Assembly: GCA_963724295.1 (NCBI GenBank)
Contig: CAVRUC010000013.1
Coordinates: forward strand, 523,210-587,209
DNA from: an uncultured Chloroflexia bacterium
GTDB taxonomy: Bacteria > Chloroflexota > Chloroflexia > Thermomicrobiales > UBA6265
Length of the DNA stretch: 64,000 nt
Direction of reading: 5' to 3'
The position numbers and the translations under genes were made by a program. Shown in pieces: positions 1,172-11,794 of the stretch (positions are counted from its first letter, which is position 1; the number at the start of each line of letters is the position of its first letter). The notes beneath the pieces were generated by a model, which was not told the origin of the DNA, searched no databases, and saw nothing but the letters and a program-made list of their open reading frames with translations.

Positions 1172-2218
1172 ATGAGAACCGCTCACCGACGATTGTTGCA
1201 GGCCGCCGCGACGGTAATGGTCGTCATGGCGCTTGGCACGTTGCCCCTCTCTAACTCGCTGTGGCTGGTGGCGGCGCAGTCCACTGACGTGGCCTCGGCT
1301 GCGCAACAAACCGGGATACCCGCTGCTCTACACGACGGGAGTTGCCCCGACACCGGCGCGGTTGTCGCCCCTCTTACGAACGCGGTCCTTCCTTCGGGAT
1401 CACCTGTTGGCAACATCGATGCCCTACCCGCAGCTAACTCATTTACGACCGTTCCGCTGTCGCTCGCCACGATCCTTGCATCGGATCACGCGATTGTCAT
1501 CGCAGATCCGATCGACAACGCGCCCATCGCCTGCGGTGAGATCGGCGGTTCCCTTGCTGAGGAAGAGTCGCTGGCCGTCGGACTTGCGGGCCAGCAGTCG
1601 TCCGGAGTTCATGGCATCGCGTTCCTCAGCCCCGGAAGCGATGGTGGGTCGACCGGAGTTTCGTTGTTTGTCACCGTGCCCGGCGACCTGACACAGGCGC
1701 CCGTGCCGAGCCAACCAACACCGGTGCCAGCGGCTGAACAGACTACGGCAGACATCGCTCCCATCGAATCGGGCGGCCTCGGATTACCGATCGAGGAGTT
1801 CTACGCACGTTATGGGGAGGCCGCCCCTGATCCGGTGATGGACGGTGAAGTTATCAGGACGGCCAATGGCCGCATCCGCGTCAGAGCTGCGGGCAACGAC
1901 AAGGTGAACGCTGTCACACGCTACTTCGATGAAGGGGTGACGTTCGACGAAGCGAGGGCTACTGGGCTGGGATTCGCGCCCGCGGATTCGGTGTTGCTAC
2001 AGACCTACACGACGTCCGTCGGCTCAACGGTGGATCTGTACTACAGCCCGTCGTTGGAAGCTCAGTTCTCAGAAACTCACGACGTTGACGGGATGGAGTT
2101 TCCGACTTGGGTCAACGGGGAGCCGGGGCAGTTCATCATCGGCTACGGAGGATATAACCCGGCGAATGAAGTCAACGAAGTCACACGGATCGTGATGGCT
2201 CTTGGGAACAATCCCTGA
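1172..2218 (+). CDS. secreted protein of unknown function (N-terminal domain paralogous to 16234..16833)
   Basis: AAGGAG RBS upstream of the ATG. Signal peptide 'MRTAHRRLLQAAATVMVVMALGTLPLS'. The domain 'GSCPDTGAVVAPLTN...IACGEIGGSL...LAVGLAGQQSSGVHGIAFLSP' aligns with 'GTCGSPGEVVAPLAN...VACGDVGGAL...LAVGMVGMNGSGLSGVAYFTP' of the 16.2-kb gene. Confidence 0.75.
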   Translation: MRTAHRRLLQAAATVMVVMALGTLPLSNSLWLVAAQSTDVASAAQQTGIPAALHDGSCPDTGAVVAPLTNAVLPSGSPVGNIDALPAANSFTTVPLSLATILASDHAIVIADPIDNAPIACGEIGGSLAEEESLAVGLAGQQSSGVHGIAFLSPGSDGGSTGVSLFVTVPGDLTQAPVPSQPTPVPAAEQTTADIAPIESGGLGLPIEEFYARYGEAAPDPVMDGEVIRTANGRIRVRAAGNDKVNAVTRYFDEGVTFDEARATGLGFAPADSVLLQTYTTSVGSTVDLYYSPSLEAQFSETHDVDGMEFPTWVNGEPGQFIIGYGGYNPANEVNEVTRIVMALGNNP

Positions 2219-2313: not shown

Positions 2314-3024
2314 GTGACTAGGAATCCGAACTGGACCGAGGACGAGGCGATCCTTGCCCTCGACCTCTACATCCGTTCCGGCTACCGCGTTCTGTCCGGA
2401 AACCATCCTGATGTGGTCGAACTCAGCGAGTTCATGAACTCGCTGCCGATCCATCCTCCCGAATTGCGGACGAGCAAGTTCCGCAATCCATCGGGGGTAA
2501 ACACCAAGTTGGCCAATTTTCGCCACGTTGACCCTGACCGACCGGGCGGATTGTCTGGTGCCTCGAAAATGGACTACTTCGTATGGAATGAGTACGCCCA
2601 TGACATTCCTCGCCTGCGAAAGGTGGTCGAGGCCATACGTCGAAACTACCGGCAACCTGAAGTTGAGCGGGAACTCGACGATCCCGACGAAAGTGCGCCC
2701 GAGGGGCGCGTCTTGCTTCGTTCGCACAAACTACGAGAACGGAATCGGACCCTCGTAAAGAAACGAAAAGAGCGAGCTTTAGCGGAGCATGGCAGACTCA
2801 CATGTGAGGCGTGCGGGTTCGATTATCAGGCAACGTATGGAGCGCTCGGCGATGGCTTTATCGAGTGCCATCACACGGTGCCGGTTTCCGAATTGAGTCC
2901 CGGCCACGAGACGAAGGTCAGTGACCTCGCACTTTTGTGCGCTAACTGTCATCGTATGCTCCATAGGAGCAAGACCGCGCTCACCATTGCACAGCTGAAA
3001 AGTCTATTGGTGCATAGTCGGTGA
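2314..3024 (+). CDS. HNH endonuclease (McrA/COG3183-like putative restriction nuclease)
   Basis: C-terminal HNH motif 'CEACGFDY...ECHHTVPVSEL...LALLCANCHRMLHRS' (CxxC...HH...N...CxxCH). GTG start. Confidence 0.85.
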   Translation: MTRNPNWTEDEAILALDLYIRSGYRVLSGNHPDVVELSEFMNSLPIHPPELRTSKFRNPSGVNTKLANFRHVDPDRPGGLSGASKMDYFVWNEYAHDIPRLRKVVEAIRRNYRQPEVERELDDPDESAPEGRVLLRSHKLRERNRTLVKKRKERALAEHGRLTCEACGFDYQATYGALGDGFIECHHTVPVSELSPGHETKVSDLALLCANCHRMLHRSKTALTIAQLKSLLVHSR

Positions 3025-3049
3025 TGCCAATTCTTTTGTCACGGTCTTC

Positions 3050-4117
3050 TTGCCCACACAGAGACCATCTGGCACGATCCCGCCTATGCAACAGCTAGAG
3101 CCTCCACTAACTGCACTCATTGCGACTGCGGTGGAATTGTTCGTCGCGTGGCTGATCTTCCGCGTCGTGCCTAAGTCATGGGGTGAGAACCGAGTCGCGG
3201 CGTACGTCATCGTTTCTGTGTTTCTCGTCGCCGTCAATTGGGCGTTGATTAGTCTCTCTGTCTCGGGATGGCTGGCGAAACCGGAGAACGCGTCCACCGT
3301 TCAAGCGGTCTCAACGGCTGCCCAAGCGATGTTTGCCGTGGTGTTGATCGGCGTTGCGGTCTTCACGCTCCGAGCGAACGCGGATATGGCGCGAGAGACT
3401 AAGCGGATGGCGGAGGTCGCCGTGCAACAGCAGCGCGCTGCGACGAGGCCGGTCCTCGCGTTTCGCATCCATCCGCCAGAAGGTGGCAGTGCTCCCGATG
3501 CAAGCGAGTTCGTGACCGAGGCGTTCAACGTGGGGGCGGGGCCAGCGCTCGACGCACGCGTGTTCTACACCGGACCGTTCAATTTTGCCGAACCGACAGA
3601 CTACGTTCAGCCGTGCACCATCGCGGCGGGTGAAGCAGCGACGTTTACCTTTAAGCTCGACAAGGACTCGCCTTGGCAGGACCAATCCGATCCACTGAAG
3701 TGGCCGCGCACGGAAGAGGACGCCGAACTCGAACAAGAGTCACATGCACTCAGAAACGCTCCCGCAGCGTTGCTACAGGATTCGCCGGAGAATAAACGCC
3801 GGGGAGAAGTTCACAGAAAACTTCAAATCAGGTCGAATCGGTACTTCGCCGACCTGACCGCTCGTATTGCCGAGCGACACGACATCGGCCAGATTCGGGC
3901 CGAATATCGCGATCTGAGCGGGGCCGCGCATGAATCGACCGCTGACTTGCTCGTCATCAATCCCCAATCGCGTCGAGCTGTTGAGCAGAAAGCGGATCAA
4001 TTGGGTGAATTGCCAGAGTCTCCGTCTTTCCATCCGTACTGGCCCGACCTCATGCTTGGGCGATTGTCCGTGGACCCGACTCCAGCACTGCCAGACCTCA
4101 GCAGGAGTGGTCGCTGA
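3050..4117 (+). CDS. membrane-anchored protein, unknown family (paralog set A)
   Basis: TM helices ('ALIATAVELFVAWLIF','VAAYVIVSVFLVAVNWALISL','AMFAVVLIGVAVFTL'), then a helical 'ARETKRMAEVAVQQQ' segment, then a beta-rich domain 'RPVLAFRI...FNVGAGPALDARVFY'. The N-terminal half aligns with the 6074..7246 product. Start uncertain (TTG 3050 or ATG 3086). Confidence 0.7.
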   Translation: MPTQRPSGTIPPMQQLEPPLTALIATAVELFVAWLIFRVVPKSWGENRVAAYVIVSVFLVAVNWALISLSVSGWLAKPENASTVQAVSTAAQAMFAVVLIGVAVFTLRANADMARETKRMAEVAVQQQRAATRPVLAFRIHPPEGGSAPDASEFVTEAFNVGAGPALDARVFYTGPFNFAEPTDYVQPCTIAAGEAATFTFKLDKDSPWQDQSDPLKWPRTEEDAELEQESHALRNAPAALLQDSPENKRRGEVHRKLQIRSNRYFADLTARIAERHDIGQIRAEYRDLSGAAHESTADLLVINPQSRRAVEQKADQLGELPESPSFHPYWPDLMLGRLSVDPTPALPDLSRSGR

Positions 4118-4836
4118 TGTCACTCAGGCTTCCTACACTCAGTGCGCAACGGGGTATTCCGACTCTCGTAGCTGGCGAGGCTTTGCTGATCCTGCTGGCA
4201 ATCGCTCTTGGAAGAGACCCCAACAGAATCGCGGATTACGCGACCATCCTGATCTCGCTGACGACGCTGTTCGCGCTTGCAATCTTCCATCGCGAGGTTC
4301 TGGATACTCAGTCGCGCCTGCACCGGGAAGTCATGGGTGAACAGGCGAATATACGCCGCTTGCAGACCCGCCCACAGGTACTCGTCTATTTCGCTCGCTC
4401 GCGGGATCGGAAGATGCTGGAGATGCTAGTGCTGGTCATCGAGCATTTCGGTGGGGGTCCGGCGCTCGATGTGCAGTTCACCTTCTCTCCTCCGCTCGTC
4501 AACTCCGAGGGCACAACGTTCGCCAACGAGCCACCCTTTTCAACAGGGATTGCGGTGATGGAACCGGGGTTCCGCCGCGAGATCAAATTTGACGACTACC
4601 ACCAGTTTCAAAAGCGTGCCGGAACGACCAGAATCGGCAGCAGGGTTATTAGGGCAGACATCGAAGAAACCCGGCTCGATTTTGAGGCAACCGTGACACT
4701 TCGCGATCCGATCGGTGACGATCTGCGATATGAAACCCGCTACAAACTCGATCTGAGAGACCTCATGCCGTACACGATGGACTTCCTCGCCGAAGCCGAA
4801 CCACAACCAGAGGCATGGATAAGGGGCGAGCCATAA
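4117..4836 (+). CDS. membrane-anchored protein, unknown family (paralog set A)
   Basis: The ATG overlaps the upstream stop (TGATG), implying translational coupling. TM segments 'LVAGEALLILLAIAL' and 'ILISLTTLFALAIF'. 'RPQVLVYF..IEHFGGGPALDVQFTFSPPL..EPGFRREIKFDDY' aligns with 'LPVILVRF..IHNYGGPATDVVFSFDPPL..PPGWDQEVRFDDY' of 6074..7246. Confidence 0.75.
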   Translation: MSLRLPTLSAQRGIPTLVAGEALLILLAIALGRDPNRIADYATILISLTTLFALAIFHREVLDTQSRLHREVMGEQANIRRLQTRPQVLVYFARSRDRKMLEMLVLVIEHFGGGPALDVQFTFSPPLVNSEGTTFANEPPFSTGIAVMEPGFRREIKFDDYHQFQKRAGTTRIGSRVIRADIEETRLDFEATVTLRDPIGDDLRYETRYKLDLRDLMPYTMDFLAEAEPQPEAWIRGEP

Positions 4837-4931
4837 GACCCGCCCCGTTGCCTGATCTGCCGGGTGTGAGGTGTCAGACCGCGCCCTACGCGGCGTGTTC
4901 CGGCGACGGCACATTTCCTGCTGGTGATGGA

Positions 4932-5001
4932 CTCAGGCCGCGATTTCCCGCGCCGCATCGTCAGCGGTGAAGCGGAAGATGATTGGTGCCTGACCTAGAT
5001 G
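4932..5001. repeat. island-boundary repeat, copy 1
   Basis: 58/66 nt identical to 10650-10715 (my manual alignment). It ends at '...ggtgcctgacctagatg'. Confidence 0.85.
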
Positions 5002-5048
5002 GTCCGTCGATGAGGATCATGGGTGTCCGTCTCCAAGTGCTCGCTCTA

Positions 5049-5978
5049 CTAAGCAAAGATGGAAGTAAGTACAGAGAAATCGACGTTACCACTCAGGATT
5101 TGTCGCACTGCCAATTTGAGCGCTTCTTCGCTGATCGTCTTGCCTGCGCTCCCTGCGGCTTCCGACGCCCGTTTGATCCACTGGCCGACGCGACTCTCTT
5201 CACGGTCAACATCTTCAACCCTCGATTCCTCAACAATCGGGGTAAGGTCGTCGACCTCGATTCCTTGCGCACGAAACAGGTCGTTCAATCTGTTGACGAG
5301 GATCAGGCTTTGCTGACTCACCATGTTGCTGGCAATGGGCATGGTTCCGGTCGCGACGCCTACTGTGGGGTTCCCACCGTGAAAAATGAACTGATTGAAG
5401 ACCTGCCCAATCGCTTGATCGGTGTCGGGGTCGTTTGGCAGAGCAGCTTCACTAACCTCCGGGTAGAGCGTCTCGATTTCAAGGACGAACTGGAGCAGGC
5501 CCGTGCAAATAGACGACAGAATCCCTTTGATTGAAGCAAGCGAAACCACCTGACGATCCGATACAAGTGCTTCAAGTCTTTGTTGGAGGACGACTTCGAG
5601 ATGGCGATGCGCTATTCCCGCAGGAAGAAAGCGTACGTCCGTGCCTTCACTCGCCCACGAAACAAGCTGCGCAACACTTTCTCGAACGTCAACGGATGAT
5701 GCCGATTTGTACGCAGCTTCGTCAGTGAACATGTCCCACGGCGCAGTTCTCTGTTGTTGGTACCCCACTCCCGATGCGTGATACCAAATCGAAGCCGGGA
5801 CAACGCGATAGTCTGGAAGTTCGGCGTCCTTCCCATAACCACGAAGTTCACTGTCAACCCACACTCGGAACGGTTCGTAACCCAGTCGCGTCGCGAGGAG
5901 GTATGCCCGTCTCAACGTCTTGTCGAAATCTGGGCCGCACTCGATCGCACCATCGCGGATGGCGTCAAGAAGGGACAT
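5049..5978 (-). CDS. AbiTii-like abortive-infection domain protein
   Basis: The N-terminus 'TLRRAYLLATRLGYEPFRVWVDSELRGYGKDAELPDYRVV' fits my recollection of the AbiTii N-terminal pattern (LLR..a..lA..l....F..Wv..EL.GY....vP.YR). The rest is unassigned. Confidence 0.6.
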   Translation of the reverse strand: MSLLDAIRDGAIECGPDFDKTLRRAYLLATRLGYEPFRVWVDSELRGYGKDAELPDYRVVPASIWYHASGVGYQQQRTAPWDMFTDEAAYKSASSVDVRESVAQLVSWASEGTDVRFLPAGIAHRHLEVVLQQRLEALVSDRQVVSLASIKGILSSICTGLLQFVLEIETLYPEVSEAALPNDPDTDQAIGQVFNQFIFHGGNPTVGVATGTMPIASNMVSQQSLILVNRLNDLFRAQGIEVDDLTPIVEESRVEDVDREESRVGQWIKRASEAAGSAGKTISEEALKLAVRQILSGNVDFSVLTSIFA

Positions 5979-6073
5979 TGCTCACGCCTCCCCAGCGAGG
6001 ACTCGTCTGCTGACATTTGACTCTGTGCAGCCACATTATCGCAAGGTAGAAGGGGCGACCGACGCCGCACTTC

Positions 6074-7246
6074 TTGCCCTCACAGGAACAATCTGGCACG
6101 ATCGAAATCATGTCCGACCTGATGCCCGAGATCACCGCCTTCTTGCTCGCTGCAACTGTAGTCCTGTGGGCGTCCTTCGCGTTCCTCCTCGGTCCGACCC
6201 TCTGGAAGTCGGATCGGCGGGCGTTCTACCTCTGCCTTGGCGTGGGAATCGTCTATGGGTGGCTACTCACCCGCTTTCTTGCGTCCGGGTGGCTGGGGAA
6301 GCCAGAGAACGCGACCACCGTGGAAGCGCTCGCGGCAGCCGCGCAAGCACTCTTCACTGTGGCGCTCATTGTTCTTACGGTGCGTACCGTTCAAGCGAAC
6401 GCCAAGATAGCGGATGAAACAAAGCTGATGGCGGCGGAGACAGCAAGAATGGCTTCGGAGACTGAGAAGATGGCTGCGGTTGCCGCCGAACAGCTTCGGA
6501 ACACCACACTCCCAGTGATCCTTGTGCGCTTTCGCTCCACCTTTGACATGGAGCGTGGTGCCGAGAAAGGGAGAATCTGGATCAACATCCACAACTACGG
6601 CGGTCCGGCAACCGATGTGGTGTTCTCTTTTGATCCGCCGCTAATTCGCTCGAATGGCGAAGACATAGGACTGAGGCCGACGTTCCTCACCGGCGTTCCA
6701 GTCGTACCTCCGGGTTGGGATCAGGAAGTGAGGTTTGACGACTACGACGATTACATTGATGACCTCTTTCTACAGGGAGGACGGACATACCTATTCGACG
6801 CAACCATTACTTCTCGCGATCCGTACTCCGGAGATTTCTTTCCACCAACCACAATCAGAATGGATCTCCGCCACCTCTCTCTTCAGCCGCTCGAAGGCAA
6901 TTGGGATCCGGCCACCGAGTTTAGAGACGAGCGGAACTGGCGAACCGACCCGCGGACTGACGTCGATTCTGCGCAGCTACAACGGGTTCTCGAATCATTT
7001 ACGGAGGAAGAGGTACCGAGAGAAGTGATAGGACCGTTGGATCAGCACTTCCGCCGGTCCTTTCAAAGGGCCGGCTGGTCAGTAGCCATCGGGAAACATG
7101 ACATTTGGTGGCGGGCAGTCGCAACGAAGCAATCAGGTATCCATCAGGGGACTAGTGTCGGGGCGAGCGCTTGGTCTACGCAAGCGACGCTTGCGTTCAC
7201 ACTGAGGAAAGCTCTCGATTTGGACGCGGAGGTGAGCGCGGGCTGA
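6074..7246 (+). CDS. membrane-anchored protein, unknown family (paralog set A, fused architecture)
   Basis: The N-terminal TM region plus 'GWLGKPENATTVEALAAAAQALFTVALIVLTV' aligns with the 3050 product ('GWLAKPENASTVQAVSTAAQAMFAVVLIGVAV'). The C-terminal beta domain aligns with the 4117 product. There is an internal triple repeat 'ETKLMAA/ETARMAS/ETEKMAA'. Start is TTG 6074 or ATG 6110. Confidence 0.75.
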   Translation: MPSQEQSGTIEIMSDLMPEITAFLLAATVVLWASFAFLLGPTLWKSDRRAFYLCLGVGIVYGWLLTRFLASGWLGKPENATTVEALAAAAQALFTVALIVLTVRTVQANAKIADETKLMAAETARMASETEKMAAVAAEQLRNTTLPVILVRFRSTFDMERGAEKGRIWINIHNYGGPATDVVFSFDPPLIRSNGEDIGLRPTFLTGVPVVPPGWDQEVRFDDYDDYIDDLFLQGGRTYLFDATITSRDPYSGDFFPPTTIRMDLRHLSLQPLEGNWDPATEFRDERNWRTDPRTDVDSAQLQRVLESFTEEEVPREVIGPLDQHFRRSFQRAGWSVAIGKHDIWWRAVATKQSGIHQGTSVGASAWSTQATLAFTLRKALDLDAEVSAG

Positions 7247-7265: not shown

Positions 7266-7293
7266 ATGACAGCGAGGCGGCTCTTAGTATAAG
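7266..7293 (+). promoter_or_regulatory. candidate sigma70-type promoter for the 7319-8767 module
   Basis: 'ATGACA' (7266-7271), a 16-nt spacer, then 'TATAAG' (7288-7293). The small palindrome 'ctcttagtataagag' overlaps the -10. GGGAGGAAG RBS upstream of ATG 7319. Pattern match only. Confidence 0.3.
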
Positions 7294-7318
7294 AGTCGCG
7301 GGAGGAAGACACTCTAGC

Positions 7319-8227
7319 ATGACAAGCACACAAGTCCGGTCTGCTTACATCGTCGCCTCAAAAGGTACGAATGTGGTGCCCCTTGTTGAAGCACTCGATT
7401 CTAGGGGGGTCTCAACGAAAACTAGCCCTCTCATCTTGGGCCAAGCTCGGATCGACCAAGAAATCATATCGGCTATTCGATCAGCAGATATGGTGATCGG
7501 TGTTCTTTGGGAGCGAGGCCCGGATCCCAACGTCATGGTTGAGTTAGGCATCGCGGTCGGGCTAGGTCGATCGCTCCTACTGTTTGGCGGTGAAGGCTCG
7601 AACGTACCTTCCAATCTTCGAAACTCTGTAGTGGTTGTCCGCATGTTGTCATGGAACGAAGCAATATTCCAGACCCACCTAGATCCATTCTTAGAGCAGT
7701 TGTCGTCCCGTCGAGAGCAACCGGAACGTAACACTCAAACCAGTTCGACTACCCAGCCATTGAGTCTTCATGCCTTCGAGGCCGCACTGAACCACTTAGG
7801 TTCCATTGAGTCAGCAGGCCACACTCCGAATGAGTCGGAAGTCGTTGGTCTATTGGCGACCTTTTTTCAGGCGTCCGGCTATTTGGTGTCAATCGAGCAT
7901 CGGCAGCTGCAGACAGGGCGGACGCGGCCAGATCTGGCAGTTTGGGTCGAGGATCTCCCTGCCCGAGTCGGCAGTCCTTTGCTCATCGAAGTTGCTCTTC
8001 GCAACGCGATGATCAACCAGAGACTAGCGCAGTTTCAGCACCTCTTACATGATTTCAAAAGTGAAGGAGGGCTAATAGTCACTTGGAGCGATACGAAAAG
8101 CTCAGGTATTTCAGGCAATCCGAATGACCCAAGAATCCCGATCTTGAGCGTTCGAGATCTAGTCAACGCGTTGAAGTTAGGAGTGTTCGCGGAGGTCTAT
8201 TTGCGTCGTTCTACAGCAAAATCGTAA
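7319..8227 (+). CDS. TIR-like / nucleoside 2-deoxyribosyltransferase-like domain fused to a degenerate PD-(D/E)xK (Mrr-like) domain
   Basis: N-terminal ~125 aa: 'AYIVAS...IISAIRSADMVIGVLWERGPDPNVMVELGIAVGLGRSLLLFGGEGSNVPSNLRNSVVVV'. This has the aD.vi.vl...pNV..ELG.a.glGr...l....vPSnL pattern of TIR-like/NDT-like Rossmannoid domains. C-terminal: 'VVGLLATFFQASGYLVSIEH...RPDLAVWVED...SPLLIEVALRNA...GGLIVTWSD' has an Mrr-cat-like layout, but the E-x-K lysine is replaced (E-V-A). About 53% GC. Confidence 0.6.
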   Translation: MTSTQVRSAYIVASKGTNVVPLVEALDSRGVSTKTSPLILGQARIDQEIISAIRSADMVIGVLWERGPDPNVMVELGIAVGLGRSLLLFGGEGSNVPSNLRNSVVVVRMLSWNEAIFQTHLDPFLEQLSSRREQPERNTQTSSTTQPLSLHAFEAALNHLGSIESAGHTPNESEVVGLLATFFQASGYLVSIEHRQLQTGRTRPDLAVWVEDLPARVGSPLLIEVALRNAMINQRLAQFQHLLHDFKSEGGLIVTWSDTKSSGISGNPNDPRIPILSVRDLVNALKLGVFAEVYLRRSTAKS

Positions 8228-8233
8228 GTTACT

Positions 8234-8767
8234 ATGGGTGACATTGATCCTTCAGTCATCAATGAATATCTGAGTGTTCGAATTGTGGATGGAGATACCA
8301 CGAGTCAGGGCCGAGCGCTCGAAGAGCTAATGTGCTATGTGCTGGAGAAAGTGCCCGGTTTCATTGTCACACATAGGAACACTATGAACGTCTTCCATAC
8401 TGAAGAAGTAGATGTCGCAATTTGGAATGATCCACATGAGCATGGCATCAGAACGTTTCCCGGAGCTTGGCTCGTCGAGTGTAAGAATTGGAGCGGTAGG
8501 GTTGGAAGCCAAGAGGTCGGATATTTCGCGAGAAAGCTTCTGAATCGACGAGTCGATGTCGGAGTGCTTGTCGCGCTGAATGGAATCACTGGTGTTCCGC
8601 AAGAACTTACGAACGCACACTACGAAATGGCGACAGCGCTCAAAGATGGTGCCCGTATTATTGTGCTTGATCGCGACGATTTGCTCAGACTTACTCATGG
8701 GAAAGAGCTTGCTGCGCTTATAAAGGCGAAGATTTGCGAGTTAGTGTTGACTGCCACCAACGCGTAA
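8234..8767 (+). CDS. Mrr-type (type IV-like) restriction endonuclease domain protein
   Basis: 'GRALEELMCYVLEKVPGF...EEVDVAIWND...AWLVECKNWSGRVGSQEVGYFARKL..VGVLVALNGITG'. The D...E-C-K catalytic motif is canonical and the Mrr_cat topology is typical. It starts 6 nt after the upstream stop. About 52% GC. Confidence 0.8.
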   Translation: MGDIDPSVINEYLSVRIVDGDTTSQGRALEELMCYVLEKVPGFIVTHRNTMNVFHTEEVDVAIWNDPHEHGIRTFPGAWLVECKNWSGRVGSQEVGYFARKLLNRRVDVGVLVALNGITGVPQELTNAHYEMATALKDGARIIVLDRDDLLRLTHGKELAALIKAKICELVLTATNA

Positions 8768-8780
8768 CACCCGTCTTTGA

Positions 8781-8860
8781 TTATGCCATCCTGATCGCAT
8801 CCTCCGCCGTGAACCGCAGCACCACCGGTTCCCGACGTAGAGGTTCTGTATATGGGGTTT
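8781..8860. repeat. island-boundary repeat, copy 3 (diverged)
   Basis: The minus-frame translation '...TPYTEPLRREPVVLRFTAEDAIRMA*' parallels copy 2 '...CPKTEHLGQAPLILRFTADDAVREIAA*'. On the plus strand, 'ccgacgtagaggttctgtatatgggg' matches 'ctgacctagatgttcagtttttgggc' at 19/26. Confidence 0.6.
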
Positions 8861-10645: not shown

Positions 10646-10730
10646 CTCAGGCCGCAATCTCCCGCACCGCGTCGTCAGCAGTGAACCGGAGGATGAGTGG
10701 TGCCTGACCTAGATGTTCAGTTTTTGGGCA
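10646..10730. repeat. island-boundary repeat, copy 2 (abuts and includes the RBS and start of the LLM gene)
   Basis: See copies 0, 1 and 3. It contains GGAGGA (10688-10693) and GTG 10697/10700, the start of the LLM gene. Confidence 0.85.
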
Positions 10731-11794
10731 TGATCCGGACCGACAACATCTCGGAGATCGACAGCGCCGTCGCCCTGTCTGTCGAGGCCACGATCGATCC
10801 GGACTTCGTGCGTGACTTCGCCCGCGCCCACGAAGCGGCGGGGTTCGACCGGGTCCTCATCGGCTACCACTCCACCGGTCCCGATGCCTGGCTCGTCGCC
10901 GCCCACGCCGCCGCCAATACGGAGCGCCTGCACATGCTGGTGGCGCACCGGCCGGGGTTCCAGGCGCCGACGGTCGCCGCCCGTGCCGCGGTGACGCTGG
11001 ACCATTTCAGCGGGGGCCGGGTCTCGCTCAACATCGTCACCGGCGGCAGCGATAGCGAGCTGGCGCGTGACGGCGACTGGTCCGCGAAGGACGACCGCTA
11101 CCGGCGCACCGATGAGTTCCTCGACATCGTGCGGGCCATGTGGACCAGCGCCGAGCCATTCGACTACGAGGGCGAGTTCTACCAGGTGAAAAACGCCTTC
11201 TCCGACGTAAAACCGCTGCAACGCCCCTCGATCCCGATCTACTTCGGCGGCGCCTCAGGGGCGGCGGTCCCGGTCGGCGCGAAGCATGCCGACGTCTACA
11301 TGTTCTGGGGCGAGCCACTCGCGGACACCACGGCGCGGATGGATGCCGTGCGAGCGGCCGCGCCTCCGGGGCGGTCCCCTGCCTTCAGCGTCTCCGTGCG
11401 ACCGATTCTCGGCGCGACGGAAGCCGAAGCGTGGGACAAGGCGCACGGCTACCTGGAGCGGATCGTCGCCCATCGCGGGAACGGGCCGGGTTCCGCCCCC
11501 GCGGCCGGCTCGCAACGGCTGCTCGATCTCGCGGCACAACGCGAGGTCTTCGACGACCGGCTCTGGATGGCGATCGCCGCGGCCACCGGCGCGGGCGGCA
11601 ATACCTCCGCCCTGGTCGGCACCGCGGAGCAGGTCGCCCAGTCGCTGCTGCGCTACTACGACGCGGGCATCACCAGTTTCCTGATCCGCGGCTTCGAACC
11701 GCTGCAGGATGCCACCGAGTTCGGCCGGGAGCTGATCCCGCTCGTCCGCGAAGAAGTCGCCCGCCGCGACCGCGCCAGCCGGGTCGCCGTCTAG
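10700..11794 (+). CDS. LLM-class flavin-dependent oxidoreductase (SsuD/alkanesulfonate monooxygenase-like)
   Basis: 'VQFLGMI...AGFDRVLIGYHSTGPDAWLVAAHAAANTERLHMLVAHRPGFQAPTVAARAAVTLDHFSGGRVSLNIVTGG' parallels SsuD. GTG start 6 nt after GGAGGA (alternative GTG 10697). Confidence 0.9.
   Translation: MPDLDVQFLGMIRTDNISEIDSAVALSVEATIDPDFVRDFARAHEAAGFDRVLIGYHSTGPDAWLVAAHAAANTERLHMLVAHRPGFQAPTVAARAAVTLDHFSGGRVSLNIVTGGSDSELARDGDWSAKDDRYRRTDEFLDIVRAMWTSAEPFDYEGEFYQVKNAFSDVKPLQRPSIPIYFGGASGAAVPVGAKHADVYMFWGEPLADTTARMDAVRAAAPPGRSPAFSVSVRPILGATEAEAWDKAHGYLERIVAHRGNGPGSAPAAGSQRLLDLAAQREVFDDRLWMAIAAATGAGGNTSALVGTAEQVAQSLLRYYDAGITSFLIRGFEPLQDATEFGRELIPLVREEVARRDRASRVAV

Follow-up and report, generated by a model that had tools for sequence, protein, structure and literature searches.

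The window analysed here, 64,000 nucleotides (nt) of DNA from an uncultured Chloroflexia bacterium (contig CAVRUC010000013.1, positions 523,210 to 587,209), carries three paralogous genes for membrane-anchored proteins of an unnamed family, which we call A1, A2 and B, and a conserved 34-nt box that precedes A1 and recurs ahead of B. Our best explanation of this arrangement has three parts, and as a whole we give it a probability of about 0.55: A1, A2 and B are complete paralogues; the box is most likely a portable sigma-70-type extended -10 promoter whose transcript would start at the start codon; and the proteins would act autonomously in exclusion or defence, their role being the weakest and speculative step. 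The genes and the two copies of the box are the following (window positions):

3046-3079, plus strand: box copy A, with TTGCCC at 3050-3055, a 17-bp spacer, TGg CACGAT at 3070-3078 and the ATG at 3086
3086-4117, plus strand: A1, paralogue of 343 amino acids (aa) counted from the ATG
4117-4836, plus strand: A2, paralogue of 239 aa, coupled to A1
6070-6103, plus strand: box copy B, with TTGCCC at 6074-6079, TGg CACGAT at 6094-6102 and the ATG at 6110
6110-7246, plus strand: B, paralogue of 378 aa counted from the ATG

All three open reading frames (ORFs) are present as claimed in an earlier note on this DNA. The box indeed lies upstream of the first in-frame ATG, as stated there, but the positions of these ATGs are corrected here to 3086 and 6110; the public annotation of B (P0001, 378 aa) uses 6110.

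Protein comparisons bear out the paralogy. A1 and B are 41% identical across the first ~155 residues (E 8e-25), a stretch that takes in three hydrophobic helices and the SGWLxKPENAxTV loop and reaches into a helical segment, and A2 and B are 30% identical over the stalk and the beta domain (E 2e-16). The likeness of A1 to A2 is marginal, with a BLASTP E-value of 0.003 and, in hhalign against an A2-type profile, a probability of 19.6% (E 1.2e-3, 65 columns around RP...GxGPALD). Based on alignment, hydropathy with a charge count, and an AlphaFold2 (AF2) model of A2, all three share one plan, in which N-terminal transmembrane (TM) helices are followed by a stalk helix and a beta-sandwich. The last TM helix runs on into the long stalk helix, and the sandwich has seven strands and an inserted helix. 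A1 and B each have three predicted TM helices and A2 has two; most of the distant relatives have a single one. A1 has, in addition to its three predicted TM helices (N terminus out, C terminus in), one ETKRMA stalk unit and a C-terminal extension. Its beta domain is of a divergent subtype in which the helical insert is longer, and by eye the last two strands of this domain (GQIRAEYRDLSGAAHESTADLLVI) correspond to FEATVTLRDPIGDDLRYETRYKLDL of A2. A2 consists of two hydrophobic helices, an unbroken stalk helix and a 7-strand immunoglobulin (Ig)-like beta-sandwich (AF2 predicted local distance difference test, pLDDT, 87.7). B joins a three-TM N-terminal module of the A1/P0002 type, P0002 being a related protein, through a long stalk to a beta-sandwich of the A2 type, and ends in a further domain of ~110 aa. 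For B, the AF2 model came from a shallow alignment and is too poor for use (pLDDT 61).

Each of the three proteins thus has a TM region, a stalk and a beta domain of its own, and they are three complete paralogues; since A1 and A2 both carry the full domain set, neither is a fragment. B is best described as a mosaic third paralogue with its seam in the repeat-bearing stalk, because its beta domain belongs to the A2 subtype (hhalign 99.7%, E 2e-25), its N-terminal module is nearest to that of P0002 (66% identical there), whose own beta domain is A1-type, and its C-terminal ~110 residues recur in P0065 and P0099. The earlier note had described a triplicated ET.(K/R)MA unit in B, and this is found as a tandem repeat in the DNA (Tandem Repeats Finder, 2.5 copies at 6427-6479):

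6406-6479, plus strand: stalk repeat of B, a 21-nt tandem repeat encoding the heptads DETKLMA, AETARMA and SETEKMA

The number of heptad units is one in A1, two in P0003 and P0004, and three in P0002 and P0032; P0003, from locus L002, is the orthologue of A1, and the two genes are 79% identical in DNA. Comparison across the family shows that stalk length alters through tandem duplication of heptads or hendecads. P0006 (L006, 143-913) has three tandem 11-residue units (EALDAQSRLHR) where A2 has one, which parallels the heptad triplication in B and indicates, as far as these sequences go, that stalk length is evolutionarily labile. The tandem repeat of B probably sets the length of its stalk and may also be a recombination junction. 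The coupling of A2 to A1 was seen as described: the two genes overlap in TGATG at 4115-4119, and an AGGAG Shine-Dalgarno (SD) sequence for A2 lies inside the 3' end of A1, 9 nt ahead of the A2 start. A2 would accordingly depend for translation on coupling to A1 together with an SD of its own.

The box is 30/34 identical between 3046-3079 and 6070-6103, in agreement with the earlier count, and when its degenerate pattern is searched at up to 3 mismatches, exactly these two sites are found in the 64 kb, compared with 0.01 expected. Conservation in other homologous loci had been named as the test of its significance, and the homologue loci with upstream DNA (L001, L002, L003 and L006; L004 is an overlapping fragment of L003) all bear the box. 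Nine copies were compared, six obtained through protein homology (A1, B, L001, L002, L003, L006) and three by scanning metagenomes with the box pattern (L023, L025, L031). TTCTTG and TCTGGCACGAT are invariant in all nine, with a semi-conserved stretch of constant length between them. In every copy exactly 7 nt separate CACGAT from an ATG, and none of these seven columns is conserved. Apart from the hairpin described below, upstream DNA is unrelated between loci, nothing further upstream being conserved.

The same box stands before genes of different kinds. Pairwise identity of the box is 72-97%, whereas that of the first 105 coding nt is 16-45% where the downstream genes differ. The statement in the earlier note that the coding DNA is far more diverged than the box needs one qualification, as one other block of DNA, and only one, is conserved to a comparable degree (3266-3300 and 6290-6324). 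This block encodes SGWLxKPENAxTV and contains four synonymous and two non-synonymous differences, a pattern such as would be expected of coding sequence. Four kinds of downstream sequence could be defined, namely, the divergent A1 N-terminus, the B/P0002 type, the L006 remnant with its A2-like gene, and an unrelated protein in L023. The latter is a 223-aa single-TM helical protein that has only its first ~9 residues in common with the family. In L006 (75-145) the box, the ATG and the SD are kept, and A1 is cut down to a 9-codon remnant of its 3' end, followed by TGATG and the A2-like gene. The N-termini of P0007 and P0009 (MQDMPDPAQESPPISNRLPTL...) presumably represent a remnant ORF of the L006 type fused in frame to the body of A2. 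There is thus an apparent series leading from the coupled A1/A2 of the window through the L006 remnant to the P0007/P0009 fusion by loss of the TGA.

The layout of the box resembles a promoter. TTGCCC agrees with TTGACA in 4/6 positions, and the spacer to CACGAT is 17 bp in 9/9 copies. CACGAT has A at position 2 and T at position 6, with C instead of the first T, and is preceded by the TG extension (TGg); its first base lies 13 nt from the ATG in all nine copies. The starts of A1 and B have no SD, and none lies in the 7-nt gap, while 7 or 8 other genes of the island have one. Leaderless-mRNA promoters of high-GC bacteria offer a class for comparison (PMC3160421, PMC3898074), and in bacterial leaderless genes a TANNNT signal is located about 12 nt upstream of the start (PMC3160421). 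The box shares with these promoters a -10-like hexamer 13 nt before the ATG, the lack of an SD and a fixed gap of free sequence. It differs from them in that its hexamer begins with C rather than T, and in that it also keeps the TG extension and the -35-like TTGCCC, being unusually long and invariant. Of the two options that the earlier note had left for the box, a regulatory element or a translated peptide, the former fits and the latter does not.

We propose that the box is the core of a portable expression module, in which the invariant blocks would act as -35 (TTGCCC) and extended -10 (TGgCACGAT) elements across the 17-bp spacer, and the first transcribed base would be the A of the ATG, 7 nt beyond the hexamer, or a base adjoining it. 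A1 and B would then be translated from leaderless mRNAs, because their transcripts would start at or next to the ATG. A promoter of this kind would explain the fixed gap of free sequence, the absent SD and the retention of the ATG in L006 despite the loss of A1. The same module would have been recombined onto different gene bodies. Two other assignments were tried and rejected. Of a sigma-54 promoter (GG-N10-GC, TGGCAC-N5-TTGC) the box has the TGGCACG, yet it lacks a GC at -12, where CC, AT and other pairs stand without conservation; a palindromic operator would have to rely on a 4-bp TGCC/GGCA symmetry that is broken in L003.

In 7/9 copies the first third of the box, TTCTTGCCC, forms the 3' arm of a GC-rich hairpin, GGGTAAGAA-GGGCG-loop-CGCCC-TTCTTGCCC, with energies of -28.7 (L001), -29.2 (L002), -25.1 (L006), -31.1 (L023) and -29.6 kcal/mol (L025). 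The hairpin is weaker in B and L031. A1 and L003 lack its 5' arm and retain the box, so conservation of the box is independent of the hairpin. Substitutions visible in the hairpin between copies are mostly one-sided (C to U, A to G). A nearly identical hairpin followed by GTTTTCG lies directly after the L023 gene and is a strong terminator (z -3.3). We infer that the 5' hairpin is a terminator-like insulator carried with the cassette. Each gene would in this way be a self-contained cassette, similar to a phage moron, made of terminator, promoter and leaderless ORF. The hairpins of this kind in the window are:

6045-6078, plus strand: terminator-like hairpin of B, GGTAGAAGGGGCG...CGCC.CACTTCTTGCC, its 3' arm being the first third of box copy B
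4823-4846, plus strand: GC hairpin GGGGCG...CGCCCC across the stop codon of A2, weak and without significance (-19.2 kcal/mol, z -0.14)

The hairpin at 4823-4846 resembles the terminator 3' of the L023 gene and has no clear U-tract. No hairpin with a U-tract was found after B, nor was the hairpin core found as a dispersed repeat in the window.

Searches with the box itself gave little beyond these loci. Scanning 185k species genomes with the pattern returned 13 hits in unrelated taxa, none of them beside a family gene and none with an ATG at +7, and we treated them as chance or generic promoter-like matches. Two of these chance hits, L017 and L020 (Bryobacterales, Acidobacteria metagenome-assembled genomes), share TTGACT-17 bp-TGtCTGGCACGAT with identical flanks, and ~5/13 hits have TTGAC at the -35 position; therefore, the box pattern tends to catch sigma-70-like promoters. 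The box scan of IMG/VR gave no match. Rfam has no match at gathering score in the window, and the region 5980-6200 yields chance-level hits only (E>2).

To characterise the family, a profile was searched against 1.84 billion cluster representatives, and 64 diverse members were used for family scans. The profile matched 686 representatives at E<=1e-3 and 60 at E<=1e-10, mostly proteins of 200-270 aa. Fifty-five of the 64 members match phrog_11802 (best E 7e-26) and 44 match phrog_9607 (best E 3.6e-21), both PHROGs of unknown function. A2 itself matches phrog_11802 marginally (E 1.3e-4), whereas A1 and B have no significant PHROG match of their own; B is linked to these families via the A2-type profile (hhalign 99.7%) and A1 weakly so (19.6%). 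Membership in the two PHROGs names the family without explaining its role, since neither carries a function. Pfam, NCBIfam and PADLOC give no match for A1, A2 and B and none across the 64 members, and Pfam finds nothing in the C-terminal parts of A1 and B or in the L023 protein. In PADLOC-DB v2, there were no defence-component matches for A1, A2 and B, and the 64 members gave only scattered hits in TM regions at E>3e-3. Searching PDB sequences with the family profile returned coiled-coil noise only. The family is large, without a Pfam entry and already catalogued as PHROGs of unknown function.

Structure comparison places the A2 beta domain in a common fold class. Foldseek searches of the A2 model against PDB retrieved only generic Ig-like folds (best E 9e-3). 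Ig-like sandwich domains of the adaptin/GGA ear, PapD-like chaperones and CopC-like proteins belong to the same class (Foldseek probability up to 0.98), but at E ~1e-2, a TM-score of 0.2-0.45 and 10-15% identity this is a likeness of fold class only. Against BFVD, three uncharacterised phage proteins of similar size and layout were found (E 1e-6 to 5e-5), one of them the 'transmembrane protein' of Rhizobium phage RHEph01. Residues conserved in the family are an Arg-Pro at the junction of stalk and sandwich, a GGPA loop, PPL and two Asp, and they do not suggest catalysis. According to the positive-inside rule, the short N-terminal tail would be outside and the stalk and sandwich cytoplasmic.

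Within the window, the G+C content is 50-61% in 1-10.6 kb and 63-69% from ~11 kb on (one bin 62%). The low-GC part is an island with these features:

4932-5020 and 10646-10734, no strand assigned: attachment-site (att)-like direct repeat, 89 nt, 82% identical
island segment I: secreted protein, HNH, A1, A2
island segment II: AbiTii, B, NDT/TIR-like, Mrr_cat, two unknowns

The repeat copy at 4932-5020 divides segment I from segment II. The 89-nt repeat duplicates the upstream region and first 13 codons of a luciferase-like gene (10697), and a weaker third copy is present near 1000-1045. The att-like repeats and the drop in GC over 1-10.6 kb suggest that the island arose by two tandem insertions, one after the other, at a single att-like site. 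Within the 64-kb window, no integrase can be seen.

Several neighbours of the three genes have features of their own. The HNH nuclease gene (2314-3024), which ends 21 nt ahead of box copy A, encodes an N-terminal domain matching the PADLOC HNH model and a C-terminus matching a Type IV methyl-directed restriction model. Downstream of B, an NDT/TIR-like gene (weak Pfam Nuc_deoxyrib_tr match, PADLOC TIR effector match) is followed 7 nt on by Mrr_cat (window 7319-8767). The pair looks, by its sequence matches, like a two-gene defence module, and it is found downstream of B also in a second assembly. Between B and the NDT/TIR-like gene, a 10-bp perfect hairpin, GGCGGCUCUUA-GUA-UAAGAGUCGC, is located at 7277-7299 (z -2.7 for the region), directly before the GGGAGGAAG ribosome-binding site of the next gene and without a U-tract. 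A secreted protein of another unknown family adjoins the A1-type gene both in the window (1172-2218) and in L002 (6923-8011); in the window its gene is co-directional, with HNH in between, and in L002 it is divergent and directly adjacent. An exact 26-nt match, GCATCCTCCGCCGTGAACCGCAGCAC, links window positions 8797-8822, intergenic and just after Mrr_cat, with L002 6772-6798, where it lies 125 nt beyond the secreted-protein gene; the flanks are unrelated, and the match may represent an island junction or a small conserved element. In L005 (40-1015), an A2-like gene directly upstream of Mrr_cat is frameshifted, so that its TM and beta parts are in different frames.

Outside the window, family members occur in varied surroundings. 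In phage Jace, gp49 is a family member and the sole gene oriented against the early operon. On actinobacterial plasmids, family genes are stand-alone hypotheticals: the C. deserti pCdes1 member adjoins a Type ISP restriction-modification (R-M) enzyme and an abortive infection (Abi) gene, the Dermacoccus member lies between conjugation genes, and the Rhodococcus member is beside arsenic-resistance genes. Metagenomic neighbours include Mrr_cat, Hypoth_Ymh, a caspase/trypsin giant protein, DUF3892, XRE regulators and SLFN_AlbA_2. In the loci examined, the settings are mobile or defence-type and not housekeeping, and no partner gene recurs across them.

Phage morons and accessory cassettes consist of a promoter, a single gene and a terminator, and many of them encode inner-membrane superinfection-exclusion proteins, as exemplified by HK97 gp15, P22 SieA and T4 Imm. 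Genes of the present family are likewise single genes for small membrane proteins with a promoter-like element of their own and terminator-like hairpins, and they sit in foreign low-GC DNA with variable neighbours, the lone reverse-oriented member in phage Jace being another point of likeness. They differ in that neither sequence nor fold ties the family to an exclusion protein that has been characterised, that most copies considered here are in chromosomal islands rather than recognisable prophages, and that their promoter and terminators are predicted rather than mapped. The role that we tentatively regard as most likely is exclusion of phages or plasmids, or defence against them, by a protein whose binding domain is in the cytoplasm. 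The beta-sandwich would be kept at a fixed distance below the membrane to bind a component of the incoming phage or plasmid, and the protein would exclude the incoming DNA or abort infection, alone and not as a subunit of HNH or AbiTii. A bolder version of this idea, in which the family would constitute an undescribed single-gene membrane-anchored exclusion or Abi system, with an Ig-like sensor on a length-tunable coiled-coil stalk and a swappable module of terminator, promoter and leaderless start, seems doubtful to us. In this version, the cytoplasmic Ig-like domain would detect a phage or plasmid component as it arrives beneath the membrane, and recombination would exchange the sensor bodies behind the module.

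A number of observations weigh against the explanation as a whole. CACGAT lacks the first T that is usually conserved, and the invariant 3' block comprises 11 nt, more than a -10 element needs, which may point to a dedicated regulator or to a sigma factor of an alternative type. A generic sigma-70 scan missed the box and called a promoter at 6010-6039 upstream of B, which would place the box in the 5' untranslated region (UTR). The predicted start site at the ATG of A1 and B is a weak point in itself. As the three pattern-derived copies (L023, L025, L031) were retrieved with the pattern, they cannot vary at the positions that it specifies, and invariance there is forced in 3/9 copies. Within the B/L001/L002/L003 orthologues, the box taken as a whole is 75-84% identical and the coding DNA 74-80%, so that the box is no better conserved. 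The hairpin of B is no more stable than shuffled sequence (z -0.03), and at B and L002 the hairpin terminates nothing, because the gene upstream is divergent. As for the protein, its topology comes from hydropathy and a charge count alone, a heuristic and not a measurement. Neither the viral contigs of IMG/VR nor the phage and plasmid records, the latter two searched by tblastn with A2, yielded a member of the close GGGPA-type subfamily, and some plasmid neighbours (arsenic resistance, conjugation) are unrelated to defence.

Some of these points would be accommodated if the box were a cis-regulatory site other than a core promoter, such as an operator bound by a dedicated repressor or activator, an ECF-like (extracytoplasmic function) sigma site or a 5'UTR element of a longer transcript. 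CACGAT is a poor -10, the invariant blocks, of 8 and 11 nt, exceed canonical hexamers, the promoter predicted at 6010-6039 is of the consensus type, and XRE-type helix-turn-helix genes adjoin some A2-like genes. However, an mRNA with a leader would lack a normal initiation signal, because there is no SD between box and ATG, and the fixed 7-nt gap of free sequence looks like a discriminator region. The absence of related upstream DNA apart from the hairpin, the lack of an Rfam match and the lack of a regulator gene common to the box-bearing loci also speak against such a site, and we consider it unlikely. An alternative sigma factor reading the same two blocks is a variant of the promoter explanation and not a rival to it. 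The other regulatory-free option, that the box encodes an N-terminal peptide LP.Q..SGTI from TTG at 3050 and 6074, draws on the TTG frame being open into the ATG in 8/9 copies and on a gene caller having extended P0003 upstream through the box. Yet in L003 a TAA closes this frame directly ahead of the ATG, the TTG has no SD in front of it, and B is publicly annotated from its ATG. All four differences between the boxes of A1 and B are non-synonymous in the TTG frame, none being at a third codon position, while the third positions of the TCT GGC ACG codons in the 3' block, synonymous sites, are invariant in nine copies. Moreover, the same box precedes the 9-codon remnant ORF in L006 and the unrelated protein in L023. 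The peptide is thus largely refuted on these sequence grounds, and we give it hardly any credence. Equally slight is the chance that the box is a site for cassette exchange, conserved as the target of a recombinase. The same 5' module does occur on at least four different gene bodies, and near-identical hairpins lie 5' of the boxes and 3' of the L023 gene, but no recombinase gene accompanies the boxes, which lie inside the island segments, away from the att-like borders. The strict distance to the ATG is explained by expression instead, and ordinary homologous recombination in any conserved promoter can yield mosaicism.

With regard to the proteins, the earlier note had seen A1 and A2 as split in one cassette and fused in the next, that is, as products of fission or fusion whose halves would act as one complex equivalent to B. 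Translational coupling of A1 and A2 through TGATG is in line with this, as is the resemblance of B to A1 at the N-terminus and to A2 at the C-terminus. The parts overlap, however, instead of complementing each other, A1 carrying a stalk and the beta motif, and A2 TM helices and a stalk. Each also exists on its own: A1-type genes are solitary in L001 and L002, with no A2 downstream, and A2-type genes are solitary in most loci, among them the contigs of P0009, P0010 and P0016, and follow an unrelated gene in L007. In L006, A2 persists although A1 is gone, and B has relatives of its own. The split form could not be upheld, and we regard it as very improbable. Somewhat less improbable, though still poorly favoured, is that the proteins are sensors or effectors working with adjacent genes, A1/A2 with HNH, and B with AbiTii or with NDT/TIR-like and Mrr. 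In the window, A1, A2 and B are directly beside these genes, a Mrr_cat gene also follows the A2-like pseudogene in L005, and the Type ISP R-M enzyme follows the pCdes1 member. On the other hand, no neighbour is conserved: the A1 orthologue locus L002 lacks HNH, the neighbours in L001 are metabolic, and other loci have DUF3892, Hypoth_Ymh, XRE, conjugation or arsenic-resistance genes. This variation from locus to locus argues for autonomous genes, and the genes carry a promoter-like module of their own.

Taken together, A1, A2 and B are modular accessory genes of a familiar kind, in which a small membrane protein of a mobile element comes with its own promoter and terminator; they do not amount to a system of a new type. 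For the box, the simplest assignment is a promoter, an element of an ordinary sort whose portable form is unusually clean here. Current understanding is not overturned by these genes, and their value lies in annotation and in the selection of candidates. If the promoter assignment is true, the window provides a clean natural portable expression module of about 90 nt, consisting of an insulating hairpin, a promoter and a leaderless start, which has been recombined onto genes for unrelated membrane proteins and would make it easier to annotate promoters and start codons in high-GC soil bacteria that have been little studied. The family is a reasonable candidate for functional screens of exclusion and defence genes, because it runs to hundreds of 50%-identity clusters, is absent from Pfam and is found in phages, plasmids and defence islands.

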